Positions 33,658 to 59,857 of a stretch of 59,857 bases of DNA are shown here, one piece after another. The notes below the pieces were generated by a model. The model made no database searches. It was not told where the DNA came from and saw only the letters and a program-made list of their open reading frames with translations. This stretch comes from Schmidtea nova (Eukaryota). Each line of letters begins with the position of its first letter. The stretch's first letter is position 1. Where the stretch lies: contig CM097882.1 in NCBI GenBank assembly GCA_044892505.1, positions 364,068,144 to 364,128,000 on the forward strand, written 5' to 3'. The position numbers and the translations under genes were made by a program.

Positions 33658-34596
33658 AAAGATCAAAGGTGAAAAAAAGATAATTATGATACTTTTATTA
33701 TAATCAATAATTACTTTTCTCCGAAATTTCTCTTTATTTTTGATAAAGTGAGTTTTTTACTATGGCATATGAATGAGTACAAATTATTAAATTGGAATTA
33801 AAAGATTCACAACCTTTTCTGAAATTAGGACATTTCAGAACAAAGCAATATTTAAGTGCGGCCATTTGGCAAGATGCGACCAATTTCTTTTTATTGTGCG
33901 GCCATTACCATTGTGATTAAAATATTAAAAAAATATTTTGTTACATTTTGTTTTCAGAAAATATTTATAGTAACAGATACCCGGTGAGAATTTAAAAAAC
34001 AAATTAAGAATCAGTAATACCCAACTGGAGTATCATTTGCTGGGATTATGGGTGGGTTCTAAATAATTAAAATAAATAGTTAATTATTAATTAAACGACT
34101 ATTGATGAGTACGTATACTAGGGATTCCACGCCCATAACCATACATAACATGACTACTACACGCGTATGCCCTTGCCTATTCCCTACTAGTCAAGTTGGT
34201 ACTGCATACGGTGGTGGAAAAATGATGGGCAGGTGAGCTTTGTTGCCAAAACTACTCCCCATTTATCTTCCCTCGGGTCCTTGCTGCCGATAGAAGGTCT
34301 TACGCAATTACATTCTATGGATGTTCGTCTCCCAATGAATTTTACACTATTTATCCTCATGAGTTATCACACGCTTTCCCCAATTGCCCTTTCCTTAACT
34401 GATCTACAAGGTAATTAATCAGTCTCTACGTAGAAACGGTCGGTCTGAGAAAAATACTGATGAGATTTTCGATTTCTAGGATTTAATTGAGTTATTTATT
34501 TTATTTAGTGAAGTCATACGATGAGAGACAAAATTTACACCAAAATACTTTTATTAAAATAATAAAAACAGGTTGTTATTTTACATCGATGTTTTC

Positions 34597-35181
34597 CTAC
34601 GCAAACTCCAGACTAATCTCCTGAATCAACTCCGCTTCGGTTAAGGAGTTCAAGTGGTGGATTTGCTCGTCCAGGCGCTTCGCAAATTCTCGGCGACGAC
34701 GACGCTGTCGCGATCCCATTCGTTGTTTTCGAAGCTGTTTGGTGAGTACAGGTACTGACGCCATTGTTCTCGATGGATCACTGAGAAAAGTAGGCAAGTC
34801 GGCTGTTACCAAAGTGGGGGCCATGATGATACCCTCTTCCGTCCCGCAAGCGACATCTTGATGAGTACTTTGTGTCCAGCGCTGAGCCGTGATCGGCCGG
34901 ATTAGCGCTCGTAATTCGGAGTCGATATAACTTCTTGTTACTGCATTTAGGCAATTTCGTAGTTCTCTCTGGACGGCATCTAGTTCCAATTTAGTTGCGG
35001 CCAGTGCTTCCTGCATTCGCTCAAGTTTTTTCGATTGGTCCTTCATTTGTTCGGGCGAGAACCACTTCGCTCTCAATTCATCATTGGCGACCGTGAGTCG
35101 CTTGATCTGCCGCTGCTGGTCCCTCAACTTCCTCTCTTGGATTTGTCCCATAATTTTCTTAGAATTTTCTGAAGTCGGCAT
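34597..35181 (-). CDS. LTR-embedded 194-aa protein: coiled coil plus Arg-rich motif
   Basis: ATG with CAG 5 nt upstream; AATAAA at 34550-34555; RKQRMGSRQRRRRRE; its last 42 nt recur at 59816-59857. Confidence 0.65.
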   Translation of the reverse strand: MPTSENSKKIMGQIQERKLRDQQRQIKRLTVANDELRAKWFSPEQMKDQSKKLERMQEALAATKLELDAVQRELRNCLNAVTRSYIDSELRALIRPITAQRWTQSTHQDVACGTEEGIIMAPTLVTADLPTFLSDPSRTMASVPVLTKQLRKQRMGSRQRRRRREFAKRLDEQIHHLNSLTEAELIQEISLEFA

Positions 35182-35509
35182 GTTGTCTGAATATTATAAC
35201 GATAAATTCGCTGGAGGACCTATCAACAATGTTATTTTATTTAGTCGACTATTTACTATTATTAAACGAGATGCATACTAATGTTTTTAATTATTGAGTT
35301 CTTTGCAAAATTATTTAACTATCTGATTATTGAAGGCTCAAAAGATTTAGTGAACTAATTTGATATTAGAAAATGGATTTCCTAATGACTATAACAACTA
35401 CAACACTGGATATTAATAAAGCTACAATACAACACTATTAACAAAATGAGACACTTCAGATTTCTCTAAAACATTTATTAAATTCAAAAACAGGTGGCCC
35501 TCGATTCAA

Positions 35510-35977
35510 CTATTCATCTTCGGTCATTTTTCCTCGATACGAAAATATCGATCTGATTTGCAAATTTGTGTTGATATTGGACGAGGCCTGCTGAAAACGG
35601 ATCCTCTCAGCTTCCCGAAGGGGTCGTATTGCTGTATGGAACTTGAACCCCAATTCCTTGAATGTAGAGGCTGGAATGAACCCCCAATATATTACACATC
35701 TCGGGAATCCTCGTTTATCTAGCATCAGAACGAACCAGGCGGCGTGCCATGATTCGAATTCCTCGTCTGGAATGATTGGCCAACTAGCACATCCCCGGTA
35801 CCATACGTGATGCCGTGGATGGTCCCATACTGTAAATGGACATGCGGTTTCAAGTTCTCGGCGCCATGCCCACATTTTTTGATGGATTTGTTGTAAAATC
35901 TCAAAAGGAGCCGGCTTTAACGGGCTAATTCGAGCTCGTTCTCGTCGCTTTTTGATGGTGAATCTGTGCTTAGTCAT
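35510..35977 (-). CDS. 155-aa Trp-rich protein of unknown function (probably within the LTR)
   Basis: ATG with TAG 4 nt upstream; AATAAA at 35474-35479; shares the 3' motif ACCTGTTTTT with the neighbouring ORF. Confidence 0.6.
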   Translation of the reverse strand: MTKHRFTIKKRRERARISPLKPAPFEILQQIHQKMWAWRRELETACPFTVWDHPRHHVWYRGCASWPIIPDEEFESWHAAWFVLMLDKRGFPRCVIYWGFIPASTFKELGFKFHTAIRPLREAERIRFQQASSNINTNLQIRSIFSYRGKMTEDE

Positions 35978-37513
35978 GATACTAGAACAATACTGAATTT
36001 TATAATAGTTAACAATTTAAATCAATTATTAAGTATAGTAGATGTTATCTCTCATCGTGATGCCTTTACTATTTGCCTTCCCCTTAGACCTTAGCTGAAA
36101 CCCAAAAAACTGTTGTTCACTACGGTATACATTACTCTCGTGTCTGCTTAGATCTATCTATTTATGATCGATAATATAGTCGGAAATTGGTGATTTGTCT
36201 GCGTGGGTATTGAAACACTGATACCTCAAAACGGAAACTCTCTCACGTCATGTATCTCCTAGCTTATTCGAAAAACGCTCTTTTGTATCAATTGCGGTCG
36301 ACCTAATTTTTAGAAGGTTTATTAGATGTTTATTTAGCAACTGTGCTGTGGTGAGGGTGAAAAATTGGGCCTCCTCACAGTCGAAAAATTCTTTCCTATC
36401 CTGCATCGTTAGATTTTATCTGAAAAATCGCCTCCTCGATAGCTAAGATGATTGAAATTAATTCCCCGGATTTGTTGGGTGTCCCATGTGCAAATCTCGA
36501 CCACTACCGATAGAATCATATTTGGTTATTTATTACTTTACCGTGTGTGGAGCCCTCGAGCACCACGCCACGGACTGACACCTTGGGAACCTAGAGCTCC
36601 CAACGGCGCAAAATTAATATATCAATATTTTTTACAATTAATCATAACAAGATTTAAATAATCAAAAATTTAATGATAACAAAAACATGCATAGTAAAAT
36701 CAATAAATCAAATTTTACCAAGTAATTCCACACAATTGATCTGATTAAGTTCGGTAGTAATACAATAGTCTGAATTAGTTTGGGGTCAAAATCGCAATCT
36801 AACAATGTCTGAATTTTTTGTCTCAACAAAAGTCTAAGTTGTACAAAGTCTAAATTTTAGTCTAAACTCTAGTCAAAAGTCTGATTTTATGAAAAATCTG
36901 ATCAGTATTTATACTGATCAGTCGTGTCTAGACCGACCAATCAAGTTCGGCCAGTTTCATGGTGGTTTTTAATTATTGTTTTTGATTCTAATTAATTTTT
37001 ATTTTTTAGATTGTATTCTTCCTTGGAGGTCCGGGTTTCCAAAAACAATTATTCAATAACAAGTACTTTTATTTGGTTTTAATTATTATTATTTGTATTT
37101 TATTTTGTTTTTAGATGTCTCCTGGGCCCGTTAATATCTAGAAATTCATTTATTTTTATTTATAGCTTGTACTTAGTTTATCTATATTTTAACTATATTA
37201 CTCCTTTCTTTTAACAAATAAATATTCCCCTTTTTACCTTATTTTTCTCTTTTTTGTTTTAATTAATCTACTTTTATTTCACTTTTCCCTCTATTTGGCT
37301 GGCCCAACATCACTCGGGGACCCCTAAAATTGCGTCCCGCAATTAATTATACATTTACACCTATATCATCATACATAAAAATTACGCAGATAAATGTCAA
37401 TTTACATATACACAAAGAATCACATAAGGTGATAGATTTTATACGTAAGCACAAAGTCATATTATTGTTAAATGTAAGTGGATCATATATACAGTGAATG
37501 TAATTTATCAGTT

Positions 37514-38086
37514 TTACACAAGCTCTTTGATTTCATGATTGGTATTGGATTGGATTGGGGTTCTTTCGCTGATTGTTCGTAGTTCGTAGAGGCTTTGGAT
37601 TCGGTTGAGATGTTTTCTCATTCGTTTTTGGGTTCTGATATCTGGTATTGTTGTTCGATTCAAGATGACTTGTTTTTGTTTTAGGATCTTTACTCGGTAG
37701 GATGTTATGAGGATTGTGATCGCGATAATGGTCACGCTGAGTGCAAGGATTATTATAATTGCGATGATCCATTTTTCTTGATATTCTATCTCTGCTTGGG
37801 CTAAGCTTTTTATGGGTTCTCGACCTTCTTTTAGGGTTTTTCTGATTGTTTTCAATTTGATTCGATGTTCATATAGGACCTGTTGAAATTTTTCGTCGTT
37901 TGGGTTGTCTAATGTTATCTGTTGAAGTTGGGTGATTTCTTGTGTTGCTTCGCTGATTAGTTTATCTAGCTCTTGATAGGTTTTCTCGGGTAGGGCTCGT
38001 AGCTCCTTCTCTGTGAGTTGAAGATCTTCTCTTTGTAGGGTGATTGTTATTAGGTATAAGAATATCGGTATTCTGAGCTTTTTCAT
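37514..38086 (-). CDS. 190-aa predicted type I membrane protein
   Basis: Signal-like N-terminus MKKLRIPIFLYLITITL; heptad-rich ectodomain; TM WIIAIIIILALSVTIIAITILITSY; basic cytoplasmic tail. Confidence 0.75.
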   Translation of the reverse strand: MKKLRIPIFLYLITITLQREDLQLTEKELRALPEKTYQELDKLISEATQEITQLQQITLDNPNDEKFQQVLYEHRIKLKTIRKTLKEGREPIKSLAQAEIEYQEKWIIAIIIILALSVTIIAITILITSYRVKILKQKQVILNRTTIPDIRTQKRMRKHLNRIQSLYELRTISERTPIQSNTNHEIKELV

Positions 38087-38168
38087 ACTGTTTTCTTTAT
38101 AGATAGGTCAATACAATTTGACACTACATTTCATATAATTATTTACAAAAATATATTTTCCGCTTTAT

Positions 38169-39230
38169 TTACACAATCGTCTCATTTGGTTCGTAGAAAC
38201 CTTCGTCCTGAGGCTCTACTTGGTTCGTGGGGAGTGGTATCCAAACAACCCTGCTCCTCCACATTTCGACTTCATCTCGATACATGTGAGATATCTGGAT
38301 CTCCTCGTCCAGCAAATATTCTAGGTAATTTGCTTGTTCTGTTAATGTTTCTATTTGCTTCTCTAATTCGATTACTTTTGTCTTTTGTTCGACTTCTTTC
38401 TTCATTTTTGTTACGGCTGCCGTTATACTTGCTTCTTTGGGTATTACTGATACTGTTACTCGTTTCTGTTTCAATTCTTCGTTTTCTTTCATCAAATTCG
38501 TTAAATTTTCCTCATAACTTTGTTTCTCTTCCTTTAATCTTTCTCTGGTTCTTTTTAGCTCTATTTTCTTCTGGGTAATCACTCCTTGATAACCATTTAT
38601 ATCTCTCTTCATCTCTTCTTCTTTCTGATTCCATATTCCGGTGAGCATAATTTTCAGTTGTTCTTGATTAGCTAGTTCTTCTCCCATTCTTTGAACTTGA
38701 TAGGTTAGTCCTTTAATTTTCTTTGCTTGTTCGCGGATAAATTGCTGTCTTTTTGTATTCCATCTTTTATTCAACACTTCTTGGTGTATTTTCTGTTCTA
38801 ACTCGTCTTTTAATTCGTCGATCTCTTTATATAATTTCCAGTCATCACTATAAGCTGTCCTTTCTATTATTTCTCTAGCTTTTTCGTAAGATTCTTTTGC
38901 TTCTTTCTTCCAGTATCTTGCTTGTTCTGTAATCGAATACATCTTGTGTTCAGCTTCCATCTGCTGTCTGTCTCTTTCCTCTCGTCGCTCTTTCATCATT
39001 CTCTGGTAATATTCCTTTTGTTGTTGTAGCATTTTGTATACTTCTTCTATTTTTTCTCGACTTCTTTGACTTGATCTTTCCGCTTCTTTTAATAATTCGG
39101 CTTGTCTCTCTACCTCCTCCTGCTTTCTATAATATGCATTGACCCATATTTCAATCTGTTCTAGATGATCGCTAATCGCTTCTGCTTGATGCATCGTAAT
39201 TTCCTGTAAGCATACTTCGATATTTCCCAT
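38169..39230 (-). CDS. 353-aa long coiled-coil protein
   Basis: E/K/Q/R-rich heptads throughout; the stop codon overlaps AATAAA (38164-38169). Confidence 0.8.
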   Translation of the reverse strand: MGNIEVCLQEITMHQAEAISDHLEQIEIWVNAYYRKQEEVERQAELLKEAERSSQRSREKIEEVYKMLQQQKEYYQRMMKERREERDRQQMEAEHKMYSITEQARYWKKEAKESYEKAREIIERTAYSDDWKLYKEIDELKDELEQKIHQEVLNKRWNTKRQQFIREQAKKIKGLTYQVQRMGEELANQEQLKIMLTGIWNQKEEEMKRDINGYQGVITQKKIELKRTRERLKEEKQSYEENLTNLMKENEELKQKRVTVSVIPKEASITAAVTKMKKEVEQKTKVIELEKQIETLTEQANYLEYLLDEEIQISHMYRDEVEMWRSRVVWIPLPTNQVEPQDEGFYEPNETIV

Positions 39231-39359
39231 TGCTATAATTACAGAAAATTTTTTTTTTTTTTTTTTTTTTTTAATCGGTTTATATATCAGTTATTTTTGT
39301 TTATATAATAATTTTTGGGTATTTAACTGTACATATTATTTACATGATCACTTCTCTTG

Positions 39360-40742
39360 TTACGTCAACCATCCTTTTCTATCCGCTTTCTCGTTCCTTT
39401 CCATTTCTATATATAAGGTGTCTGCATATAATCGTTCCCATAGGTTTTCTTTCGTTATAAACATCGGTTCTCCCGCTGCTAATCCACATTCTGTGGTTGG
39501 TTTCTCGCTCGTACTCGCATGTTTCTCTGTCTCAAAGAATTTTTCTACTGGTTTTGTTACACTTCTGATTCTTACAATGACTCCTACTTTCAAGGGCCAT
39601 TCTACTAGGTCGTCGTATTCTCCTTTACATAGCGAGAAAAATATTTACACATGTGTTCCCCGTCCTCTTCCGTCTCCATTTGGGTATAGCTTCAATCTCA
39701 CTTTAGCTCCGTTTCTCCATAAATAAAATGGTGGGCTTATTACTGCTGTTTTCGTCATGTTTCGGGCCTCTGTTAATTTGTCTCTAAAATCTGTCACTTT
39801 CCACACATATGGTGCTATTGGTAGCTTTTCCTCGGTATCCTGTGTGAGTTTGTTGTACTGGATTTTCATTCCTTTAGCCAATTCTTCAATAGCTTTTATC
39901 TTTTTCTCCATTTTTTCTCGTGTTAGTTCGAATTGCTCTCTGGTTTCCAACAGTAGGCTTACCATTATCTTGTGTGACTCTATTTCTCTTTCTAATTTTT
40001 TGATCGTTTGTTCGGTTTCTTTTGTTGCTTCGTTTGTCATTTCCGCATGCTTTAGCAATGCTTCCTCCAGATGTTGTTTCATGGTTTTTTGCGTTCTTTT
40101 CTCCATACATCCCTGTTTATTATAAGGGCATTCCCTTGGTTTCTCCGTGCACACTTTCCAATGTTCTTGTAATTTTACTTCTACCGTTATCTCGCATTCG
40201 TTTGAACATATTCCTACATATTGTCTACATACTTTCTCCTCTTTTACATTCAGGTGTTCTTCTTCGATCTTTCTCCTCGTTTCTCGAGTTCCACAATATT
40301 CGCATAGACTTTCCTCTTCTTTACATTCATCTTTGTGCTGCTCTTTATTCTTTATAGTTATTTTTTGTTGGCATTTGTTACATTCAGTTCTCTTCTCTTC
40401 GCAGTTCTCCAGATGGTTCTCGAGATCGCGTATTTGTCCTTGCCATATACATGGTTGATTAATACATTCGGTTTTCGTGTTCATGATTTCTCTCTGAGTT
40501 GCTCTATCTGGTCTGGTTTCTTCGAATTTTATTTGTCCTTCTTTGCATTCTGGACATTCTGGTGGTCTCTTCATACTTAACTCGTGTATGCATTTGGTAC
40601 ATACTCTGCATCCGCATAGGGTTTGTCTTGGTTTCAATATTATGTTTTTACAATTTACACAAGTGAGTCTCTGACTCCATTTCCTGTTCTCGGCTCTCAA
40701 AATTTCGATTCTCCGCTCTTCGGCTTTTCCTTCTGTATTCAT
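39360..40742 (-). CDS. TRAF-family protein (RING, TRAF zinc fingers, coiled coil, MATH), 460 codons with one in-frame TAA at 39645-39647
   Basis: CVNC...CGCRVC RING; CNKC/CEYC/CPYNKQGC fingers; the MATH domain YVWKVTDF...SPPFY...LYPNGDGRGRGTHV*IFFSLCKGEYDDLVEWP continues in frame into ORF 39360-39593. Confidence 0.9.
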
Positions 40743-40833
40743 TCTACAAAGATATATACACTTGATTTGTTATCTATTTTTTGATTTTTCTTGTTTTTTG
40801 TTTTACATATTTACAATTTTTCGCTTTATTTAT

Positions 40834-41190
40834 CTACGGCTCGTTTGTTGAATCTGGTTCTGGGTCATTTTCTGATCTGTTTATTGCCCAATTTGTCCAT
40901 CCATCCTCTGCTTCTTCTGTCTCTCCCATTGTTAAACGGTCTATCTCTATTGCTTGTCTCTGATTTATGTCGCTCATCACTTGATTCTCTCTGGTAAGTT
41001 GCGTTATCAATCTCTGTTGCTCCTCGATTCTGTGGAGTTGTTCAAAACTATTATTATAACTTTCGGATAACAAATTCTGTTTCTCAATTAACTGATTTTG
41101 TAGTGAGTTGATTGTTCGTATTAACATGTCACACTGGGCTTTCCATCGCATAGCCATAGTAGTTTCTGCTATTTCTTCCTGTTCGTTCAT
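40834..41190 (-). CDS. 118-aa coiled-coil protein of unknown function
   Basis: ATG with TAG 3 nt upstream; Q/E/L heptads; AATAAA at 40825-40830. Confidence 0.65.
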   Translation of the reverse strand: MNEQEEIAETTMAMRWKAQCDMLIRTINSLQNQLIEKQNLLSESYNNSFEQLHRIEEQQRLITQLTRENQVMSDINQRQAIEIDRLTMGETEEAEDGWTNWAINRSENDPEPDSTNEP

Positions 41191-41315
41191 TTTCTAAATT
41201 ATATACATTAATCGTTTTCTCGATTTCTCTTTTTATTTTTTTATAATATCGATACCCATACTATTACGGTAATGCATTGTTATTTACACTATTATTTACA
41301 GTCATATCCCGCCTC

Positions 41316-43262
41316 CTATATCACCATCACTGTCTTTCCTTCGTACCGCTCTTCATCTTCTATTTGTCTCCAAAATTCTTTACCTTTCGTCCTCCTTTGA
41401 AATTCTTTCTGTACTTCTTCCGGTAATTCTATTCTGTAGTTCATAATTTTTATATCTGGCCAATGTGTTATTGGTTTCTTGTTGAGTACATCGTATATCC
41501 ATATTATTAATAACACTGTTATTACTGGAATAGTTGCTGCTAGTATTCCTAGGCCAATTAGTTCTCTAACTTGTTTGTTTACGTCCATCTTCGTAATTTC
41601 ACTCTGGTTAATCATTGGTCCGTATTGTCCCTTTAGTTTATTTAGTAGTTGTTCTCGTTCTTGTTGTTTTCTTTTAACTTCTTTAATTACTTCTTCCGGC
41701 GTCCATCTTGCGTAAGGGTCTATTACTACTTGTTCTGCGTCCATTTGTTTCGTTGTCTGACTTAATTCTTTAAATTCGAGTTTTCTCACTTTCCCTTTGG
41801 ACGTTCAGTTTACCGGTGTGTAGTACGTTTCGCATCTTTCCTGCTGATTTCCCAATATGTCCGTCTTTTCTACCGCACATATCTCGTATTCTCTATTAAA
41901 TTTCAGATTTTTGATACTCATTTCTTCTTTTCCTTTTACGGTTTCGCAGTATCGTGGCTGTCTTTCTTTTTGTTCCTGAACTACTGCCCAACATATTTCT
42001 AACGTTTTATTGTCTATTCTCCATAGTATAAGAGTTGCTGTAGTATTCTTTTCGGTTTTTATTTGTATTTCTTGGTTTTTCCGTTGTCCATTAGGTTTAA
42101 AGGTAGTGGTATACCTCGCTTTTCCTTTGTTCCGTTGTCTTCTACTTTTTCGCGTTGTCTTTCCAACTCTTGTTCTGGTGGGTGTTTTATATAATTTGCA
42201 TTCCAATTCATTTACTGTTATTTTGTCGCTTTTCCTAATCAGGCATATTTCGTACGTTTGATTGCTTTCTAATCCTTCTATCTGTATTGTGGTTGTTCCT
42301 CTGTTTGTTCGACATTGCGGCGGTGTATTCTGGTTTGTTTTCCTTTCCTGCTTCTTCCAGCATACGCCTTTGACGTCCGGTTCTATTCCGGTTAACTCTA
42401 ACATTATAGTTGTTCTCCGTTTGGTGCGTATATTTCTTCTTCTTCTTCTTATGAACTTTATTGCTTCCCCAGGTTGAAATGTTTTACAAATTGTCGTTCC
42501 TTTCTTGTGTCTTTCTTTTTCTAGTAAACATAGTTCATACGTCCTGTCTGCTTTTACTTTTGATATCTTGGTTACTTTATTTGTTTTCCTTTTCCGACTC
42601 GTCTTTATTTCGCTTATGCCAATTTCTTCGTTGTTTCTGGCCCAACACTTTGGGTTGGTATTTTGGGTGTCGTTCATCTCTGTTACTGCCATTGTGTCAA
42701 TGTCTATCCCTTCTTCTAACCGTTTTAACATTGTTAATATGAGTGCTAGACATAGTAATTCTGTTTGATAGGTCACTCTTTCGGTTTCATTTGTGGTTAC
42801 TCTTACTTCGGGCTTGTCTATGGTAATTCGTATAGTTGGCGTTGTTCGTCTGTCTATTGTCTGGGGTTTTTTGTTTTTTGTTCCTTGGGTCTCCGTTTTT
42901 CCACACTTTCCTACGACGTAGTCTCCTTTGGCTGACTGCTGTACTGTTATGGTTACTTTGGGTGTTAGGTAATTTGCACATGCAATTGTGTTGTGTGATC
43001 TTGGATTCTTTTGTTTTCTGATGGTGCATATTTTGTACCAAGTATCTAGCTCTAAGTCATCGATCTCTATGATTTCTTGTTCGTATTCTGAAATCCTGCA
43101 ATCCATTGGACTATTTTGTCCCGAGATTTTGTCCTTTTTCGACCAACATACTCGTTCGATTCCTTTTGCGTTTCTAATTTGTATTGTCGCTCTTTCTTCA
43201 CATATCATTCCTTGAGTTGGACTAATTAAGGTCATGACTATCGTTAGTAATAATAGTTCTGG
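41316..43262 (-). CDS. Predicted surface protein: signal peptide, 3-4 Cys-containing FN3-like repeats, coiled coil and TM (in-frame TGA at 41805-41807)
   Basis: PELLLLTIVMTLISPTQG signal-like segment; repeats of CW...C...I-x-I-x-x-L-x-x-(N/D)-x-x-YEIC...C-x-x-Y-x-TP; RTKR dibasic site; the frame continues into ORF 41316-41789 with TM LIGLGILAATIPVITVLLIIWIY. Confidence 0.7.
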
Positions 43263-52200: not shown

Positions 52201-53246
52201 AAAATATTATCATCTTTTTCTTTTGTTAGCTCTATTAGCTCCTCTAACATATCATCGCTATCTGTAAAAATTTCGTCTACATCGTATGGTTCTGGTGGTG
52301 TTCTTTCTCTTGTCTCTCTTGGTGTTGTTCTAGCTTGTTCTGAGCTTGTTCCTGGAGTCATTACCGATTTCATTGGGCTCGGCGTACTCATACTTCCTTT
52401 TGGTTTCTTTTCCTCTTTCAATTTCAATGGTTGACCTGCTATTGCTGCCACTGTCAATGTATTTGCGATATCTAATTGCGCTGGCGTTATTCCAATTTCC
52501 AAGCTGTTATCTAATGATCGTCCTTGGTGTTGTAAATGGAATGGTGGTTCATATCTCAATTTCTTTTTAATGTCTCGAACTTTCTCCGCTATTCCTACCC
52601 AAAACTCTTCCTTTTCTTGGTTCGGATATACTATTCTTAGGTGTACTTTCTGTGGCGATTCCTGCGAGAATTCCTGGTTTCTCCATTTTTTAATTACGTG
52701 ATCCAATTGTTCTGGACACCACTCGTTAACTCTTTTGTATTCGGCGATTGCTTTTGCTACTTTACGCAAGCATGTTATGTCTTCTCCATTAACTACGAAA
52801 AAATCTGCGAGACCTTTTACTAATTTTCTCTTTCCGTGCGCATTGGTTTTTAATATTTCGACAAATTCTTCCGTTTTTTGTTTCTCTCTTTCCAACCACA
52901 TGGTTGCCGTTTCTGGTCCGTCTAAATCTGCTGGCATGGCTTTTCTTGTTACCATACAGACTCTTCCGGTTTCCGGTTTGTGATCGTCTTCTATGCCTAT
53001 TTCATATTCTTCTTCGTATTCGCCTGCTTTTGGTTCCCAACATTTTCCTCGTTCGTTCCATTGTTTTTCTACAGGTGTTCGTAATCGTCTGTTGAGATTG
53101 AGTTCTTCTAATACATTTTCCCATTCTGGCCAAATCCGCCAATTTCGATAGATGTCTACTATTTGTTGTAATTTGTGCACAACTTCTTTTTGTCGTTCTC
53201 GTTCTCTTTTCTCATCTTTAGCAGTTTCTCTTGGTGTATCGTCCAT
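43263..53246 (-). CDS. pol: 3327-aa polyprotein: UBL, AT-hook, Bcl-2-like, envelope glycoprotein, protease, RT, RNase H, integrase, ankyrin repeats
   Basis: AMIDTGA (PR, about 48850); LDLKSGYWQI, FGLTNAPASFQR and YIDD (RT, YIDD at 47631-47642); TDAS/TDH/NADCMSR (RH); HHCC, MDVIGP, TDQG, TERFN and GPY (IN). Confidence 0.97.
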   Translation of the reverse strand: MDDTPRETAKDEKRERERQKEVVHKLQQIVDIYRNWRIWPEWENVLEELNLNRRLRTPVEKQWNERGKCWEPKAGEYEEEYEIGIEDDHKPETGRVCMVTRKAMPADLDGPETATMWLEREKQKTEEFVEILKTNAHGKRKLVKGLADFFVVNGEDITCLRKVAKAIAEYKRVNEWCPEQLDHVIKKWRNQEFSQESPQKVHLRIVYPNQEKEEFWVGIAEKVRDIKKKLRYEPPFHLQHQGRSLDNSLEIGITPAQLDIANTLTVAAIAGQPLKLKEEKKPKGSMSTPSPMKSVMTPGTSSEQARTTPRETRERTPPEPYDVDEIFTDSDDMLEELIELTKEKDDNIFERIQELPTAIPVTNTEDEVEQEIIIEEVNEIAEEEARRANVENVQFTQEMERWLEERANEPRDVTEKTGRETRLVETGTTMDKRPRGRPKMDPANVVIKSREEKRRNQWDLCLKKLNKIAETKEKETTQTYQGEEWISKMLMEILAIIDPELKKWWRINEISERAKSLHSAIAPILPELIKEKTRSNHLDWQGTTMLIKKLTEGAETDNKYLIAMAYTIYNLLTLSRGRLKPTALERHIKNTAKIIEKEIEPYIISKGGWEIFTKTNQKKNQAENMKKKFEEILGELEKEKSGTGNGKSTLNLSSIIMMMLIWMISTDGATAFEVFDCDQMALGEKYSLRGIEQCKNATPTELKTLKKRQLYHVYQEAELIRTMVRECKVYKTRFAFYCGHRHYSAIVMPGTERESVMLQGEDCEKLFKHGEVETRDRVKIRGKTGVILQQTYYVAGAITGGEGYCQGATYPIFGVAATNLVVIDTYTVELKTYETFFDPTTGEMKTLPMCKIESNTCQTGMSTLTYQIRGKECQLQLLKEAEFDEIQGKTFQEEEEDEAARGKILQDTVRGEKKIETRTQEKQIKMRNTPTVLITSDADIGMRFVKGKTALKCGVAMLETNYPGIFVSKQEVPSAKRKVHTNDVKLHLYMNNKMDFLFHRGQASLQKVYYDLINNDCILNREILKTKLAVAITNPDSAMPLLPLREGHFGRVVGEVMYVYICKKTNAKVATMTKLQPGQCTNELEIEYKGKVRYVQPVTRIINPVNFEPNPFNCSNAYGPLYQKPDGNWVMFPSRTEVPAPREFELMQLSKGRKFKDVDVSNMGFYSAKDLEAARQNILFPARREAVLSSIVTITGGTNYQGGPNYELLLSPAHFKKATENMMKAMWGRFLIFGQMMAGILGVILIIQIIRVIITQMLACFDIYKREKKVNWKLVVGFLPFLAKTMVLHGHSKDIHRIKRLLKILAKMKGTDEEVGRKFKKIMNNEQARQQLKKERKGLWERMKGYRTQDDSSDDDDDDNEGGQVFKNQVPQYVEKNPAEMWKCYAPPPTMYQEPTPGMRQNTMQMMPMTNIYPMIPEDYRTRRCRSVDPQGDSHTIAVMSSNTGPVLTTTIEINGREIEAMIDTGANISAIDIKWIPQEQRRDIERTNVHVIACSKEVVEVAGRWWVNIKHQNTEIETFVAVIPALSVPCIIGTDLMPALFKEIVIDLGTMRLKDRTGQICAIEAKVTSSKQIIVPARREKICFVKIDPTIEGDMIFEPSKRFEKRKSLPMARGLVSANDNGEIPINVVNFDEEDKIIYENERLGKLTPMIDIEIPIKEGVKEEEPTWNIDSQLLNEDQKKQLERLLIEYKDIFAASDLDLGTCDVTLHTIPLTDETPIALRPYKLAEAQKSVAEAEVQKMLDAEVIEPSCSPWQFPVVMVKKKDGTQRFCIDFRRLNAVTKRDTYPLPDINEMLLTLQGAAYFTSLDLKSGYWQIKMKEEDKEKTAFTIGRDLYQFRKMPFGLTNAPASFQRCMNFVTHGIKQCMVYIDDLLIYSSTFEQHIQDIRDVFVRLRQWKLKLKPSKCDWAKEKVTFLGHIVSAKGKEPDPRNIDKVKECPIPKTITQIQEFLGLCGYYRKFIKDYAGIAKPIQELVKKDVSFIWGSEQQTAFETLRDKLITAPILVHPDFKKPFLLATDASGYAAGAVLGQYDDEGKERVIGYYSRTFKKHEKNYSVTEREALAIILAIKHFKYLLWGHIICITTDHQPLVWLGQHKETSSRLMRWAMQLQEYSPDIKFKSGKANANADCMSRLTFPELTDPEVQRICIVIAEDLDFSELKKDQQEDKELRPIIEFLSSRNMDVFKDNAELKEHMRKYQHRYTIEKGWLLIQDGEKRLMCLPGNRRKEIITQYHDGKLGGHMSDKKTLDRMRQKYYWPTMNEDVKEWIKNCLTCATRKDSGKKWKNPLKPMPIPAEPMTTIAMDVIGPLPESLNGNQYILVITDYLTKFPEAFAMPDQKAKIVARSLVEEICCRYGTPKQILTDQGTNFMSEILDEVTNYFRIAKLRTSPYHPQTNGQTERFNGTLIRMLSNYVSKHQTDWDEYIKLCLMAYRMSIHAATKLSPFQLMYGRECNMPIDLEYQPPLSQYMEEDDYVTKFKERMQEIWKTAELNIKFYQESYKDLHDQKKNVKTNDLKPGDWVMIETPEIIPGTVKKLQRPGKGPYEVIYKKENNVKVKLVNRPLIRPIYVNTCRCKKVPKTITTAPEERIITRSQTARMNMLRATNEIIEAENKQQKKRNKEIVLKAREIMGRWHVRDDILRDIQSIISDYARGLPTKPVISELMEKIPEILSLEDIGGQPALHNAIKWGEVERVKEFLKIAKETNQHLGFGNSEQETPLMVAAIYKSDKAIIDLLINADFNWTERDRENKTVLNHVIWSSNQIMLKQIIEKATWEIDELIKGDIIKEAIKIGNCKTIRKLIKWKRSENDTWVLNINEVYSEGQNALLQFLLKFVCDQKALLTLLDRRNIIISKNKEECKFESEKEALFRKIREWCAKSLTKTITYKDISNFQDKYKTVEEEYDKLVDILNHPEKCKQFLCRKERESKRKFTPLFSAEVPYQERLDAIQDKAKELLPEFENSKHTLEILGAIVEKIHAYAEGTYNENDMMIIKREMPVTFLLTKNGVLPIHRALRAGKDRRVVEIARLMQDCGSDMNMKDKKGDTLMIFAARANTKTRVLQELYEAGAGLMGRTNKDSSILDVALLTHNWEVINFIKTITNQEEIEYLTRTVKKASVHSMMHNVELTEAILNWTNPNTNEPAFRINEFMEQGKNLYIKCALIINKWPKIIDIFMRRKDLRFTNNPKETERTDKWKELMKTYLNNWIKAKKEILDCKLTDKEIPKQAETQEYEASILTTITYEKMIEAINVEDDIFNDQRGGDNTGSDDDSTRENPEDHELSDKEDSEEKGRNTEKNDKKNEFGKQRHNNYKNKNEAKRTGYKQTINPFF
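43970..45225 (-). other. Two ankyrin-repeat clusters C-terminal to the integrase
   Basis: GQPALHNAIKWG, ETPLMVAA, NKTVLNHVI; GVLPIHRAL, DKKGDTLMIFAAR, DSSILDVAL. Confidence 0.88.
49380..51300 (-). other. env: Envelope domain: chuvirus/Monjiviricetes-like (class III, gB-like) glycoprotein
   Basis: Internal signal SSIIMMMLIWMISTDGATA; FDCD...YSL...C; CK...CGHRHYS; GYCQG; CG...ETNYPGIF; YMNNKMDF; GEVMYVYIC; CTNELEI...VQPVTRII; TM FGQMMAGILGVILIIQII. Confidence 0.85.
51400..51800 (-). other. Bcl-2-like domain
   Basis: BH2-like IEPYIISKGGWEIF (GGWEIF at 51411-51428) closing a helical segment of about 130 aa. Confidence 0.7.
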
Positions 53247-53264
53247 TCTGATAACGTGGATGGT

Positions 53265-56200
53265 TTAGTGATTATCCCATATCCCAATTTTATATAGCCG
53301 TCTTTCATCGTGATCCCATAATACATGTTCATTATATTTCATGATTATGTCATCTTCCCATTCTTCTTCTGGTTCTCTTTGTAATAGTGTCTCGTTGATG
53401 ACATTTACTAGTTCTTTTATGGTACAATCTGCTACCACTTCAATTTCCTTGGTATCCTCATTAGGCAGTTCCACTGAAATTTTTAGATCTGTTATTTTTC
53501 CTTGTCTAAACATTGCTTTTCCCATTTTGGCAATTACTTTTCCGTATGAGATTTGTGACCATCTCGTGTGACTTGTGTCACGTATGCACTCGATACATCG
53601 TTTCAACTTCTCGTATTCGCTTCTCATTAACTCCTTTCTATGTTTTTTGATTTGTGGGATGATTTGCTCTATCATGGAATTTAGATTTCCTCGTAAGATT
53701 CGTTTTTTCTCATATTCTAACCGTGGTTTTATCTTCTTCTCGAAACACGTATTCGCTTCCTTTGCTACTTCTTGTAGGTTCTCTTCTCTCTTATCATCGT
53801 ATATCGATAATGTTGTCACCTCTCCTGGCCATATGCCTGTTTCTATCAAATGCGTCCTTTTCTTCACTAGTCCATTCTGTGAATAGAGGAATTTGTTCTT
53901 ATACGAACTCCCTAATCTGTCTTCTACCCATTGATAAATATCCTCCGTGAGTGGAGTTTTGATCCAAATCCTTGGCAAACATGTTTTTATCTGTATTAAG
54001 ATTATATATTCATGGAGTGGTTCTTTTAATAATTTTCCTACGTATTGGCTTAGTGTTTCTACTTCCCGGCCTGGTAACCACTCTTTATAGTTCATTTGTA
54101 ATATCGCTCTCATGAATTTCCGATAGTGTTTCTTGTCAATGAATTCCTCATTGTATATTACTTCTAGCGCATTATCTAGTAATTTCTCGATCTCGTCCTC
54201 TTTTACTTGAATAGTTTCTGGTGTCTTTACTACTTCTATCTTTTTGTCTTCAATTTCCGGTTCGTTTAGCATATCTCCGGCTAGACTACTGACGTCACTA
54301 TCCTCTTCGTCATCTGAAAAATTCTTTGCCTGGCCTCTCAACATGTTAATGTGTTTTATTTGGTTGATTTCACTTGGTGTATCTTCCGTTGGTCTTGTTT
54401 CACTTTTAATAGCTTTTTGTGTTGATTCACTCTTGTCGTCTACTACCTCGACCTTTCTCATTTTTCGTTCTAACTCGTCTATTTCTCCCAGCCGTCTTCG
54501 TATCATTTTCCCTTTAAATATTCGACTGATTCGTGTTTCGTGACGCACTGGCGGTGGAATTCCTTCTGGTTCTATTTCTTTGATTACCATCACATTTCTT
54601 TTTGTCTCTACTACTCCCATGTTTTCCCATATATCCGTTAGTTTCAATTTTACTTCTGGTGCACCTTCTATTTTTAGGAATGCTTCTCTGGGCAGTTTCG
54701 TTACTCCTGGAGCCATTTCATTCACTTTGTTGAACAATATTCCTACTTCTTCTTTTATGTTATATTGGAATCGAAACACGTGCTTGTTTGGCAAAATTAC
54801 CATCATTCCTCTTTTCCCGAGTTTCCATTTCTCTTCTTGGTTCCCTTCTTTTTCTACCTCCTTCTCTGTTTCTTTCTCTGCTTCTTCGCTTCCTGGTACT
54901 ATTTCTTTTCGACTTTCGTTATTGGTTGGATTCAGGTTTGTTGGATTTATTTCTGGCACAGTCTCTTTCTCGTGGGTATTTGTTTGATTGGTTGCTCTCA
55001 TCATATTAATTCTTAGAGGTTGTCGTTCTCTTTCTTGCTGTTTTTGTTCCTCTTCTCTTTGTATTCTTGCCCATTCCTGAGCATGTCGTGCTTGACTTTC
55101 CCGATTCAATCGTTTGTTTTCGCTTTCTATTTTTCTCATCATGTTGATTTGTTGTTGACCTGTTTGCGGATTTCCTCTGTTTGTATTGTTTATCTGCTCC
55201 GTCAATCTTTGAACCTCTTGCATTAAATGTATTTCTTTAGGGGTGTTTTTATTTTGGTTATTATTATTATTATTTTGCTGGTTTCCGTATTCCGGTCGGT
55301 TTCCATTATTTGGCTGATTCCCATAATTCGGTTGGTTTCCACCAGTTGGTTGGTTTCCAATATTCTGCCAGTTTCCTCGTTGATTGCTTCTTTGTCCGCA
55401 CTTTCTTGATAGGTGTCCAGGTCGTCCACAATTAAAACAGGTTATTGTGTAACATCTGCTCTCTGAATGTCCTTTTACTCCACATTTTCCACAATTCAAG
55501 TTCTGATAACATTCTTGTTGCCAATGTCCCAATTTCCCACATGTTTTGCATTGTTTCGTTGGTCCTTGGGGGTTGTAATTGCTTTGATTTCCGAAATTTG
55601 ATACTTTATTCCCTTCATTCCTTCGTTGCGGTGGTGGTCGGTTTAATTGTTGTGAATTTGGAATGTGGTTATTCAGGTTCACTTCTTGTTCGTTTTGTGC
55701 TGTATCCATAGCTAAATAGATTCTACCATCATTTCCTATCATGTGTAGTTCAAATCTATTAGCTGTTTCTAGTGCTTGGTCAATAGTTTTACACCCTTGA
55801 CATCCAACTTGCGCTCTTATGTCGGGTCTTCTTAATCCTCCCACAAAGATAGCTGCCATTAACTCCTCATTTATTGGGCTGTCTTGATTAAAGATCAACT
55901 TTGCTAACTTTTTCAATTCGCTTGCATATACCGCATTCGATTCATTTATCTTTTGTTTCCTCATTGAGAATTCCGTGAATGCCTCATTCAATACTTTATT
56001 TATTCCGAAGGTTTGTTGGAAAAAGTCCTTTATCGCTGACCAACTTGTAGGTGGATTAATTCCATTTTTTGCTTCCAAATATAGATCTAATGCGCTATCT
56101 TTTAAATATAGCTGAATTCTGCTTACAGTTGTTTCTGGTTTCCACTTGCATACTTCCACGAATATGCCAAATTCCTTTAAGAAAGTTTCCAATTTACTCG

Positions 56201-56750
56201 CATCTCCATTAAACGGTTCTCCGGAAAATTTGTCTTTTATTTCTTCTCTGGGTTCGCTCATTTCGATTCCGCTGTCTGTAGTTATTTTACTTTCGTTTCC
56301 TCTTGTTTCTAGTTCACTGTTATGTTCGTCACTCGAATTTATGTCGATCTCAGTTTCCTTTGCTGATTCGTTGTCCGATGCTTTACTATCGTTATCGGTA
56401 TCGTCACTTTCTGTTTCTTGTTCTACTTCGTCTTCTATTTCTTCTATATAATCGTTGTTGGTTTTGTCGACTTCTATTTCACTTATTGGGTTTCTCTCGG
56501 GTTCTGCTTGATTTTCTTTGTTGCTTGAACTGTTGCTTGTTACTGATAATTTATCGTTTTCGATAATCGATTTCTGTATTATTATCTTCCTCGCTTTACT
56601 TCCTTTTAGGCCTTTCTGCTTATTATTCTTGGTAGCTTTATTCTTTTCTGCTGGTTTTATTACCACACTATTTGGGTCCTCTTTGTTGATTTTACTGTCG
56701 ACTTTCTTCTCTGCTGGTTTTATTATGACACTCTTTTCTCCTTTTCTCAA
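53265..56750 (-). CDS. gag: Extended Gag, 1161 aa: acidic N-terminus, capsid, 3 CCHC knuckles, Q/N-rich tract, two ubiquitin-like domains
   Basis: Capsid about 55740-56230 (PFNGD...YLKDSAL...QKINES...FVGGL); CKTCGKLGHWQQEC, CGKCGVKGHSESRC and CFNCGRPGHLSRKC (55398-55550). The listed start is TTG; the first ATG is M164 at 56261. Confidence 0.93.
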   Translation of the reverse strand: MRKGEKSVIIKPAEKKVDSKINKEDPNSVVIKPAEKNKATKNNKQKGLKGSKARKIIIQKSIIENDKLSVTSNSSSNKENQAEPERNPISEIEVDKTNNDYIEEIEDEVEQETESDDTDNDSKASDNESAKETEIDINSSDEHNSELETRGNESKITTDSGIEMSEPREEIKDKFSGEPFNGDASKLETFLKEFGIFVEVCKWKPETTVSRIQLYLKDSALDLYLEAKNGINPPTSWSAIKDFFQQTFGINKVLNEAFTEFSMRKQKINESNAVYASELKKLAKLIFNQDSPINEELMAAIFVGGLRRPDIRAQVGCQGCKTIDQALETANRFELHMIGNDGRIYLAMDTAQNEQEVNLNNHIPNSQQLNRPPPQRRNEGNKVSNFGNQSNYNPQGPTKQCKTCGKLGHWQQECYQNLNCGKCGVKGHSESRCYTITCFNCGRPGHLSRKCGQRSNQRGNWQNIGNQPTGGNQPNYGNQPNNGNRPEYGNQQNNNNNNQNKNTPKEIHLMQEVQRLTEQINNTNRGNPQTGQQQINMMRKIESENKRLNRESQARHAQEWARIQREEEQKQQERERQPLRINMMRATNQTNTHEKETVPEINPTNLNPTNNESRKEIVPGSEEAEKETEKEVEKEGNQEEKWKLGKRGMMVILPNKHVFRFQYNIKEEVGILFNKVNEMAPGVTKLPREAFLKIEGAPEVKLKLTDIWENMGVVETKRNVMVIKEIEPEGIPPPVRHETRISRIFKGKMIRRRLGEIDELERKMRKVEVVDDKSESTQKAIKSETRPTEDTPSEINQIKHINMLRGQAKNFSDDEEDSDVSSLAGDMLNEPEIEDKKIEVVKTPETIQVKEDEIEKLLDNALEVIYNEEFIDKKHYRKFMRAILQMNYKEWLPGREVETLSQYVGKLLKEPLHEYIILIQIKTCLPRIWIKTPLTEDIYQWVEDRLGSSYKNKFLYSQNGLVKKRTHLIETGIWPGEVTTLSIYDDKREENLQEVAKEANTCFEKKIKPRLEYEKKRILRGNLNSMIEQIIPQIKKHRKELMRSEYEKLKRCIECIRDTSHTRWSQISYGKVIAKMGKAMFRQGKITDLKISVELPNEDTKEIEVVADCTIKELVNVINETLLQREPEEEWEDDIIMKYNEHVLWDHDERRLYKIGIWDNH

Positions 56751-57299
56751 CGGGATTACTTTTGTATACTCAATTTTCCTGTCTTATCGTATTCCGATTC
56801 TTTTCTTCCTTGGTTGCTTGGTTTGGTTTGATTGATTTATCTAAAATACAAATGTCACTTCAACGATACTCTATTGTTATCGTTGCGCTTTTATTCCCTT
56901 TTTACGGGACTTCTCATTACTGGGTTTCTATTATTTTTCCCCATTCCCAGATTCCCCTTTATTTAAGTCTATTTAAATTATCTATATACTAGTCACAATT
57001 ATCTATTTAGTCATAACAATTATCTATCGATTATTAAAATACATCCATTATTTTTCCCGCGGTCTCCCAATTTATTTGTCGTTCGAACGCTCTAATTCCC
57101 TGAGTCATTTGACTCGATTATTATTTTATCATCTCTTTATCTTTCTCTCTGCTAGCCTCTAATTATTAATTCTGCCGGTCTTTCCGGTCAGCTCCTATTT
57201 CTCAATTCTATTTGCATGCATTATTTTAGGTCGCATAATCCGCTTTACTCGCATTTCTCAATTATTGGTGCGCACTATTCTCATTATCGTCGACGATCA

Positions 57300-57525
57300 C
57301 AACTCTGGGCCTATATTCCCTCTGTTGTTATTTCTTATCCCTTGCAACCCTGGGCCTATATTCCCTCCGTTGCTATCTTCCTTTAATTTTAAATAATTGC
57401 AACCCTGGGCCTATATTCCCTCCGTTGGTGCTCAACAACTGTAACCCTGGGCTTATATTCCCTCCGTTACTATCTTCCTTTAATGTTAACTAATTGCAAC
57501 CCTGGGCCTATATTCCCTCCGTTGC
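57300..57525. repeat. Leader array A: 5 copies of AACCCTGGGCCTATATTCCCTCCGTTG
   Basis: Copies near 57301, 57346, 57401, 57443 and 57498. Confidence 0.92.
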
Positions 57526-57571
57526 TATATATCCGGATATCCCTATTGGCTCCTTTGGCCTCTAATCAATA

Positions 57572-57737
57572 TCAATTATCTCAAATGGCTCTTATGGCCT
57601 CAAATTCATATCTCAACTATCTCAAATGGCTCTATTGGCCTTAAATTCATATCTCAATTATCTCAAATGGCTCTATTGGCCTTAAATTCATATTTCAATT
57701 ATCTCAAATGGCTCTATTGGCCTTAAATCATATCTCT
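57572..57737. repeat. Leader array B: 4 x 41-bp tandem repeat
   Basis: Unit TCAATTATCTCAAATGGCTCTATTGGCCTTAAATTCATATC; three copies carry CCAAT on the minus strand. Confidence 0.92.
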
Positions 57738-57780
57738 CAATAACGCCTAGCTAGGTCATTCAATATGGCTCTTTGGCCTC

Positions 57781-57963
57781 AACCCTTTGTTTCAAGGGAC
57801 AAACCGCTGATAACCCTTTGTTTCAAGGGACAAATTCTAATAACCCTTTGTTTCAAGGGACAACCAGCTGATAACCCTTTGTTTCAAGGGACAAATTCTA
57901 ATAACCCTTTGTTTCAAGGGACAACCCGCTGATAACCCTTTGTTTCAAGGGACAAATTCTAAT
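57781..57963. repeat. Leader array C: 6 hairpin units AACCCTTTGTTTCAAGGGACAA with alternating 8-9 nt linkers
   Basis: Copies at 57781, 57812, 57842, 57873, 57903 and 57934; CCCTT/AAGGG stem. Confidence 0.95.
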
Positions 57964-58440
57964 AAATTTTCCTTAACCGGTTAATCGTAATTCTTAACTT
58001 CGCTAGCGACTACAATTTCTCAGCTGAGTTCTCTCAATTTCATGCGAGCTGATTATGCACCTCTTATTTTTCTCTATAATTCCTCGATTCTTTGTTTTAT
58101 TACTAATTCTTTCGCTGATCAGTCATAATTCAATTTTTATTATTTTCTCTGCGCGCATCTTACCTCATCAGGGTTTTCCCTATTTCTCTCCCCAACCAAA
58201 ATATACAAAAAGATCGCGTTGGTCTACTAATGCGGGATGTGGTGATCAATCACATCACAAAAGCTTTCCAACATTTGCGATTGGCCCCTTTCTATATACC
58301 CCGAGTGGGTTGATCAACTGGTACCTCCCAATGGGTGCTTAACGGACTACTTGACAGTAGCTCAAAAATTAATTAACATTGTTGATTGCTCCCCTGACTT
58401 TGTCATTCGATACAATATATTAACACACTCTAAATATTTA

Positions 58441-58902
58441 TTATAAATAAACTACAATTTTATCAGTTACAGAGAAATTGCACATGGGGCACTCATCACA
58501 CTTATTCGCACAGTTTTTACAGAATCGAAAATGTCCGCATGGTAGAAACATTATTTGGATTTCACTGTCTTCGCATATGTAACATTGTTTATATTGTTTT
58601 GCTGCCTCGACCCCTTGCGACATCCATCGGTTATATGTTAGACTTAACTGCTGTTCTATATGTCGGCATCTGATATTCAACTCGGCATCCTCTAATCGTG
58701 CTTTGTACCATTTATATCGCGTATTTATATCGAGTTTATTTACTTTCTCTATGATTTTTATTAACTCAGTTGTTTCCTCCGTTTGTGTCGTAGGTTCCTC
58801 ATATTCGGATGCTCTTATTCGGGTTATTTTTTCGCAGACTGTCTCAAATGTATCGTTCTCGGTGTTGAAAAATTCCTCGATTTCTTTCAGTTTTTCCTCC
58901 AT
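58441..58902 (-). CDS. 153-aa protein with a C-terminal IAP/MDM2-type RING finger (no BIR domain seen)
   Basis: CYIC...IMFLPCGHFRFCKNCANKCDECPMC; the stop codon overlaps AATAAA (58437-58442). Confidence 0.88.
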   Translation of the reverse strand: MEEKLKEIEEFFNTENDTFETVCEKITRIRASEYEEPTTQTEETTELIKIIEKVNKLDINTRYKWYKARLEDAELNIRCRHIEQQLSLTYNRWMSQGVEAAKQYKQCYICEDSEIQIMFLPCGHFRFCKNCANKCDECPMCNFSVTDKIVVYL

Positions 58903-59232
58903 TTCCTAGATAATTTATTTAAACACTGTGTTAATATTATTGGAAAAGTAGTACTGTGTTTCGTTTTCGACAGTTTATAGCCTCCCCCCGTGTTTCGATA
59001 AATTGTCGTCCCGACCTGTTATTTATAAATGCATTTATTTAATTTATCTATTTCATTGTGTTGTTGTTTTTATTTACTCAGTTTGTTTAATTCTCAGTTT
59101 ATAACTATCTATTTCCACGTAGCTCGCTTTCGTCTCGATTACTTATTCGGTTACTATTTTTCTCACGAAATTCTGATTTTTAAAACTTTCTGTTGTCGTT
59201 GGGTTCACATTTTCCGCATAAAAACAAAGTTG

Positions 59233-59250
59233 ATCCCAGCTGAGCCCCCA
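59233..59250 (-). promoter_or_regulatory. Primer-binding site, tRNA-Pro type
   Basis: TGGGGGCTCAGCTGGGAT matches the vertebrate tRNA-Pro PBS TGGGGGCTCGTCCGGGAT at 15 of 18 positions; 6 nt from the LTR end. Confidence 0.8.
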
Positions 59251-59256
59251 AATTTA

Positions 59257-59857
59257 TGCTGGGATTATGGGTGGGTTCTAAATAATTAAAATAAATAGTT
59301 AATTATTAATTAAACGACTATTGATGAGTACGTATACTAGGGATTCCACGCCCATAACCATACATAACATGACTACTACACGCGTATGCCCTTGCCTATT
59401 CCCTACTAGTCAAGTTGGTACTGCATACGGTGGTGGAAAAATGATGGGCAGGTGAGCTTTGTTGCCAAAACTACTCCCCATTTATCTTCCCTCGGGTCCT
59501 TGCTGCCGATAGAAGGTCTTACGCAATTACATTCTATGGATGTTCGTCTCCCAATGAATTTTACACTATTTATCCTCATGAGTTATCACACGCTTTCCCC
59601 AATTGCCCTTTCCTTAACTGATCTACAAGGTAATTAATCAGTCTCTACGTAGAAACGGTCGGTCTGAGAAAAATACTGATGAGATTTTCGATTTCTAGGA
59701 TTTAATTGAGTTATTTATTTTATTTAGTGAAGTCATACGATGAGAGACAAAATTTACACCAAAATACTTTTATTAAAATAATAAAAACAGGTTGTTATTT
59801 TACATCGATGTTTTCCTACGCAAACTCCAGACTAATCTCCTGAATCAACTCCGCTTC
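59257..59857 (-). repeat. 5' LTR (truncated by the window end)
   Basis: Identical by eye to 34038-34638; ends ...CAGCA next to the PBS. Confidence 0.95.

Follow-up and report, generated by a model that had tools for sequence, protein, structure and literature searches.

The minus strand of a 59,857-nucleotide stretch of the Schmidtea nova genome (assembly GCA_044892505.1, contig CM097882.1, positions 364,068,144 to 364,128,000; the whole stretch is called the window) carries a giant long terminal repeat (LTR) retrotransposon. The element is of the Burro type within Ty3/gypsy and ~28.5 kb long. Each of its seven accessory open reading frames (ORFs) is preceded by a splice-acceptor-like YAG (Y, pyrimidine). 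These sites are probably alternative 3' acceptors, joined in cis by the host spliceosome to one short, ATG-free leader located in the LTR. The LTR TATA box would fire at the predicted place and start a transcript with the leader exon. The leader donor would be joined in cis to the equivalents of the LTR-internal acceptors at 35981 and 35186. By analogy, we infer that five internal acceptors are used as well, and the same leader may also serve an acceptor ahead of Gag. Every accessory ORF would thereby come first on a separate mRNA, and the unspliced RNA would be the genome. The following features are involved.

36906..36913, minus strand: TATA box of the LTR (predicted promoter), at the same place in 10/10 sister 3' LTRs
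36719..36901, minus strand: ATG-free leader, the predicted common first exon, based on ATG counts across LTRs; its 5' end is predicted
36713..36718, minus strand: predicted major 5' splice donor, GTAAAA in this element; the corresponding position in other LTR variants reads GTATTT
35982..35994, minus strand: two acceptors for LTR ORF 1, TTCAG 15 nt and YAG 4 nt before the ATG (positions 35992 and 35981)
35187..35191, minus strand: acceptor TTCAG for LTR ORF 2, identical with the right-hand deletion break in both LTRs of the copy at G000:C1:499.3 Mb
58905, 41193, 40743, 39232 and 38087, minus strand: predicted internal acceptor positions ahead of five internal accessory ORFs
58158..58163, minus strand: putative second donor-like site GAG/GTAAGA, present in 8/9 sister stretches

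The donor (36718 in the window) lies ~190 nt downstream of the TATA box. The leader is free of ATG codons in eight of nine LTRs of the element's family, whereas an equal length of sequence downstream has 3-5. A sister family, for which the donors are predictions only, has no ATG in the leader in 4/4 cases and 5-7 in the sequence after it. The leader and the first part of the intron exist in several barely alignable variants, and every variant has a GT donor of its own at its end. The remainder of the LTR is alike. In a 24-nt inverted repeat (36898-36921), the loop and the inner part of the stem are made up by the TATA box. No spliced copy was found in the genome for the second donor-like site. 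The exact junction coordinates, from 36718 to the acceptors, are open to a direct test with existing planarian RNA-seq data.

Intron-shaped deletions in two copies

Two of ten sister 3' LTRs are shorter than the others. The copy at G000:C1:499.3 Mb has the leader, ending in TTGAG, joined to ACAAC-ATG in both LTRs. This is the equivalent of position 35186, in front of the 194-aa LTR ORF. Its LTR measures 1,748 bp and the target duplication TTTC is intact. At the joined place, the sisters have a GTATTT...TTCAG interval of 1544-1562 nt. The second copy, at G000:C2:349.65 Mb, has a different leader variant. It ends in ATTAG and is joined, again in both LTRs, to AATC-ATG, the 35977 site with the near acceptor. 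Two sisters (L234 and L235) have GTATTT...TTTTAG intervals of 801 and 798 nt in this place. In both spliced copies, the deletion begins precisely at the counterpart of the 36718 donor.

LTR copying by reverse transcription is an established part of retroelement replication. If an RNA has been spliced within its LTR-derived end, its reverse transcription is expected to place the same deletion in both LTRs of a copy. We infer that the two deletions arose in this way. Spliced forms are rare among the LTRs that match the donor patterns. For the first pattern, 2/89 are joined, 85 are unspliced and two have a changed donor base. For the second, 2/69 are joined and 67 are unspliced. All 20 LTRs with the donor variant of the window element (GTAAAA) are unspliced (0/20 joined). 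As a control, five internal deletions in other copies were compared with the window by inspection. None of the five fits GT-AG, and most have longer microhomology. As the spliced LTR copies show, transposon splicing can be read from DNA alone.

Acceptor-like sites before the accessory ORFs

An earlier note on this DNA had placed a YAG 1-5 nt before every ATG-started ORF, in nine of nine cases. The nine contexts are present as quoted. The set was incomplete, and two of its sites are internal ATGs. On the element's minus strand, ORFs that begin with ATG and reach at least 118 aa number 11, and the two left out do not fit: Gag (56261) has its YAG 10 nt and the ORF at 41744 has it 12 nt upstream. 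In the corrected tally, a YAG within 5 nt is found at seven of eight true starts, that is, at all seven accessory ORFs and not at Gag. The background is 79 of 539 other sense-strand ATGs (~15%) and 23/150 in-frame internal ATGs. The comparison with a shuffled background came out in favour of the sites: 7/8 exceeds chance with a P of 4e-6 when the 60 nt upstream are shuffled, and with 8e-5 in a spacer-based binomial.

Conservation of the AG across copies, a second expectation of the earlier note, holds for six of the seven accessory acceptors. Sister stretches retain the AG before 58902 in 9/9, before 41190, 40742 and 39230 in 29/29 each, and before 38086 in 10/10. The acceptor of the TRAF-type ORF has 89 exact genomic matches with AG and none with another base in place of the A. 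At 35181, 10 of 11 sister stretches have CAG, and the eleventh is a spliced copy. At 35977, the AG 4 nt upstream is present in only 2/9 sister stretches, one of them the element's own 5' LTR; other sisters have GG there. A TTCAG or TTTAG 15 nt upstream is found in 7/7 unspliced sister LTRs among those listed. The AG before 43235 is absent from 10/10 sister stretches and private to the window copy.

A search for BIR domains revealed an abundant relative of ~25 kb, the sister family (L158-L172; e.g., G000:C1:350785689 onward). It encodes a protease-ankyrin ORF and 8-9 accessory ORFs, including BIR. No Gag or reverse transcriptase (RT) ORF was seen in it, and it is likely non-autonomous. Its RING, 211-aa, TRAF and 515-aa ORFs share 26-38% identical amino acids with ORFs of the window element. 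Ten starts, hand-picked from four copies, have a YAG 0, 6, 2, 1, 5, 1, 3, 3, 17 and 15 nt upstream. This amounts to 7/10 within 5 nt and 8/10 within 6 nt (shuffle P 1e-5), with the 6-nt limit set after the data were seen. The TRAF start used is the ATG common to the copies; some have an earlier in-frame ATG without an AG. A YAG is located directly before the ATG of the RING homologue (~27% identity). The homologue of the 118-aa ORF (38%) has CAG 2 nt and that of the 353-aa ORF (30%) has TTTCAG 1 nt upstream.

The earlier note had proposed an own mRNA for each cistron, made by alternative cis-splicing or by host spliced-leader (SL) trans-splicing. The AGs before the accessory ORFs behave as 3' acceptors, and cis-splicing is the better option because of the two exact GT-AG deletions joined to the LTR leader. 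Alternatively, the internal ORFs may form an operon-like array that is resolved mainly by SL trans-splicing at the AGs, with cis-splicing limited to the LTR. The spacers between the 3' accessory ORFs are short (~60-160 nt), as in such an array. Flatworms, including S. mediterranea, have SL trans-splicing and operons, and acceptors are often common to cis and trans splicing, according to the available text of PMC12582326. Cer1 of Caenorhabditis elegans has spliced mRNA with and without SL1 (available text of PMC3315495). The lack of leader-to-internal joins in DNA, treated below, would also agree with trans-splicing. Operon resolution, however, requires 3' cleavage before each acceptor. The earlier note had stated that many ORFs have their own AATAAA; the motif occurs in 6/8 spacers of the window element, but it is not enriched (9 observed and 6.6 in dinucleotide shuffles, p ~0.2). 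The sister-family spacers have 13, compared with 13.6 in shuffles. Flatworm SLs end in ATG (PMC12582326, same text), which would be in frame at only 10/21 sites (p 0.12 against one third). A working cis donor is present upstream on the same RNA. Resolution mainly by trans-splicing is unlikely.

A local origin of the messages was also considered, with promoters inside the element, one per internal ORF, and short local introns that end at the AGs. Such an arrangement would fit two distant families with polyproteins of 3,401 and 3,393 aa. In the 400-nt spacer ahead of their single accessory ORF, a TATA-like box and, after it, a short GT...TTTTAG interval can be recognised by eye (L102:1690-2088 and L113:1639-2056). 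The TTTTAG is 6 and 3 nt before the accessory ORF, and a CAG is 8 and 6 nt before Gag. Both families also have a conserved 32-nt GT...TTTAG interval ~70 nt before the Gag ATG. The spacers of the window element are much shorter, and at four of its five internal acceptors the preceding 200 nt hold no donor-like site. This makes local promoters highly improbable, the least credible of the explanations weighed here.

The spacers are enriched in an 8-mer, TGTAHATA, which we take to be a Pumilio element. It occurs nine times in the eight spacers of the window element, compared with 0.8 in shuffles, and 11 times sense and twice antisense element-wide. In the sister family, seven copies are in spacers (0.8 in shuffles) and none in 6 kb of coding sequence. 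The minus-strand spacers listed for the 8-mer are 41316-41193, 40834-40743, 39360-39232, 38169-38087 and 37514-37330. Its commonest form, TGTAAATA, presumably also fits a CFIm UGUA motif or a forkhead DNA site; the latter would be in line with local promoters.

Several points weigh against splicing from a common leader. The support comes from DNA. The spliced copies number only two, and their joins share 2 nt (AG) and 4 nt (TTAG), so that template switching at microhomology is possible for each join alone. No join to any internal acceptor was found in genomic DNA, in searches of which one was blind to leaders ending in AG and two others to the RING exon, which begins with G. The sister family has no spliced copy at three predicted LTR donors. 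The family is young, and conservation among close copies is therefore weak evidence alone. Pyrimidine tracts are weak at several acceptors (AAAGAAAACAG at 38087). Passing over several upstream acceptors and as much as 20 kb would call for some form of regulation. The Gag ATG has no adjacent acceptor, and Gag may start at 56261 or at a non-ATG codon among 174 open codons upstream.

Internal splices would remove the primer site (59233-59250) and could not be copied into DNA, which would account for the finding of LTR-internal joins only. Each of the two joins runs from an equivalent GT to an AG next to an ATG; that both are template switches is unlikely. The most sceptical explanation is that the internal AGs are unspliced, as start-codon context or leftovers of gene capture, and that the two LTR deletions are microhomology accidents. 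The AG microhomology at both junctions, the A-rich strand and two copy-specific accidents among the nine earlier sites agree with it. It is opposed by the enrichment in two families with proteins that are ~30% identical. The spacing between AG and ATG is not constant, as it would be in a fixed start context, but ranges from 0 to 6 nt. The two deletions are independent, and both run from the equivalent GT to an AG no more than 5 nt away from an ATG; none of the five other deletions does so. This explanation is very unlikely.

Among rejected candidates for joins, those at sister-family donors were 17 hits that proved to be tandem duplications in the four inspected, six point changes and two chance matches. 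A further 56 candidates came mostly from an unrelated ORF (five inspected). Four sequencing runs, kind unrecorded and DNA-like, had no joint at the acceptors nor the two known joins among the rows listed and were uninformative.

Polyprotein and organisation of the element

The element is flanked by a 4-bp target duplication, AATG, and has at least 89 close copies in the genome. Its 5' and 3' LTRs are identical in 3265 of 3272 aligned bases. Pfam domains comprise Gag, a Monjiviricetes-type fusion protein, protease, RT, RNase H, integrase and ankyrin repeats, with RING and TRAF/MATH on separate ORFs. All seven accessory ORFs are under purifying selection, with a ratio of nonsynonymous to synonymous polymorphism (pN/pS) of 0.10-0.23 against 9-10 sisters; the window copy is common to all comparisons. 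Five of them are without a convincing Pfam match. The parts of the element are listed below.

34038..59857, minus strand: Burro-type Ty3/gypsy LTR element, ~28.5 kb; the 5' LTR extends 2,672 bases beyond the window end
59257..59857, minus strand: in-window part of the 5' LTR end, identical to 34038-34638
59233..59250, minus strand: 18-mer resembling a primer-binding site, adjoining the 5' LTR on its inner side; the sister family has an almost identical motif after its LTR
58441..58908, minus strand: RING-finger ORF, 153 aa (Pfam), with predicted acceptor TCTAG 3 nt upstream
57300..57965, no strand assigned: tandem repeat block between the RING ORF and Gag
56841..56852, minus strand: T-rich acceptor-like site 579 nt upstream of the first Gag ATG, the predicted acceptor of the polyprotein mRNA
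41316..56783, minus strand: polyprotein frame Gag-Env-protease-RT-RNase H-integrase-ankyrin-tail, 5,155 codons (4,981 counted from the first ATG, 56261)
40834..41198, minus strand: 118-aa ORF, predicted acceptor TTTAG 3 nt upstream
39360..40748, minus strand: TRAF-type ORF (zinc fingers, MATH), predicted acceptor TGTAG 1 nt upstream
38169..39237, minus strand: 353-aa ORF, predicted acceptor TATAG 2 nt upstream
37514..38092, minus strand: 190-aa ORF with a hydrophobic stretch, predicted acceptor AACAG 1 nt upstream, pN/pS 0.15
34038..37309, minus strand: 3' LTR, 3,272 bp, with TATA box, leader, splice donor and two ORFs
35510..35977, minus strand: LTR ORF 1, 155 aa, no Pfam match, pN/pS 0.10 against nine sisters
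34597..35181, minus strand: LTR ORF 2, 194 aa, no Pfam match, pN/pS 0.18 against ten sisters

In the window copy, Gag, Env-Pol, a 476-aa ORF and a 142-aa ORF share one frame and are split by single stops. At 53265-53267, 43263-43265 and 41805-41807, where the window copy has these stops, sense codons are present in 14/14, 12/12 and 30/30 sister stretches; the stretches overlap, and independent elements are fewer than these counts. True ORF ends are stops in every sister stretch tested. Because their upstream stops are private to the window copy, the ATGs at 53246, 43235 and 41744 are internal methionines of one polyprotein. As read from the sister sequences, Env and Pol are made within this polyprotein and not via own acceptors. 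The suggestion of the earlier note that an acceptor before Pol provides a separate, foamy-like pol mRNA is not tenable, with the boundary of gag and env being sense in 14/14 sister stretches. Copy-private stops are an annotation trap that yields false separate pol and tail genes. The TRAF ORF has a private stop as well (39645), which is a sense codon in 32/32 sister stretches.

Genomic RNA would have three ORFs upstream of Gag, and Gag-Pol therefore likely requires a spliced message too. The acceptor-like site at 56840 is a candidate. Its AG is kept in 36/38 stretches, and the sequence up to the Gag ATG is ATG-free in 26/30 loci. The sister family has a similar site. Upstream of Gag, 174 ATG-free open codons (56261-56783) encode a basic and then an acidic sequence; the region is open in most sister copies and a shared stop precedes it. 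A start codon donated to Gag by the terminal ATG of a spliced leader was rejected in its simple form. Although the site 56840 shares its frame with Gag, 45/45 stretches have a stop 18 codons further downstream.

The tail of the polyprotein (41316-43235) has repeated cysteine/tryptophan-spaced units, fibronectin-type-III-like by impression and without Pfam match, followed by a hydrophobic stretch. The 18-mer at 59233..59250 presumably matches a Pro-type tRNA. A protein search with the TRAF ORF found seven distant TRAF-like proteins and no close element. A bacterial promoter scan and a tRNA scan gave nothing informative for the splicing question. Outside the element, the window has an intact 610-aa hAT-type transposase with a BED finger (8602-10434). 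A 142-bp perfect inverted repeat pair is located at 30060-30572 and 31100-31801, with fragments that, by impression, resemble a Tc1/mariner transposase.

Comparison with known systems

Complex retroviruses of the HIV type use a major 5' donor with many 3' acceptors. The window element is alike in its non-coding leader exon, the alternative acceptors just ahead of accessory starts and the proposed use of unspliced RNA as genome. In the DNA of two copies, the equivalent 5' donor, which follows a non-coding leader, is joined to two different acceptors. Unlike complex retroviruses, the element is of the Ty3/gypsy type, Env is inside the polyprotein, and the donor precedes the primer site and belongs to the LTR. 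The LTR also contains two acceptors with their genes, and no Rev-like export factor was identified. Foamy viruses have a separate spliced pol mRNA. Once the copy-private stop is taken into account, nothing specific is in common with them: sister copies have Gag, Env and Pol in one frame.

The closest known systems include the Burro elements of dugesiid planarians, noted for their size and for cargo related to apoptosis and ubiquitin. In a review section on Burro/GYPSM1 (PMC6431247), the elements are ~30 kb long, with multi-kb LTRs, tandem repeats and accessory ORFs, similar to the 28.5-kb window element. Both have ankyrin, RING and TRAF/MATH domains, as well as a polyprotein of ~5,000 aa in which a mononegavirus-like fusion protein sits between Gag and Pol in the same frame. 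The reported Burro polyproteins of 4,873 and 5,140 aa are close to the 5,155 codons found here. The window element differs by a TRAF/MATH protein encoded as a separate ORF downstream of the polyprotein and by two ORFs inside the LTR. BIR, BCL2-like and dUTPase-like motifs were reported for some Burro members. None of the three has a Pfam match in the window element; BIR is present in the sister family. The review section does not describe the expression of accessory ORFs, and splicing is unmentioned in it. In S. mediterranea, BURRO1 RNA is abundant after PIWI knockdown, according to the available text of PMC8532177. The main text of that paper lacks the string 'splic', and Burro is mentioned once in the available text of PMC11410931. 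No paper on the splicing of Burro accessory genes was found in the literature covered; the primary Burro paper and its supplements (Grohme et al. 2018) were outside this scope and may bear on novelty.

Cer1 is also a gypsy-type element and has an unspliced 8-kb gag-pol RNA and a spliced RNA made via host consensus sites. Unlike the window element, it has one spliced product, which is partly SL1 trans-spliced, and an array of accessory genes is not described in the available text (PMC3315495). Maize LTR retrotransposons share introns inside the LTR (available text of bioRxiv 10.64898/2026.05.08.723830). Their LTR transcripts are non-coding, whereas the LTR splices of the window element lead to two ORFs under purifying selection.

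By analogy, the element appears to work like a complex retrovirus, but it is a gypsy-type relative of Burro. A common leader with many acceptors would, if true, explain the expression of the extra genes of Burro by a design that arose outside Retroviridae. A wider proposal is tentative and rather doubtful: an independently evolved complex-retrovirus programme in a gypsy branch, with one LTR leader and eight acceptors, solo LTRs as spliced two-gene units, and a stem-cell or germline control, tied to Pumilio, of the accessory output (RING, TRAF and, in the sister family, IAP-like proteins).

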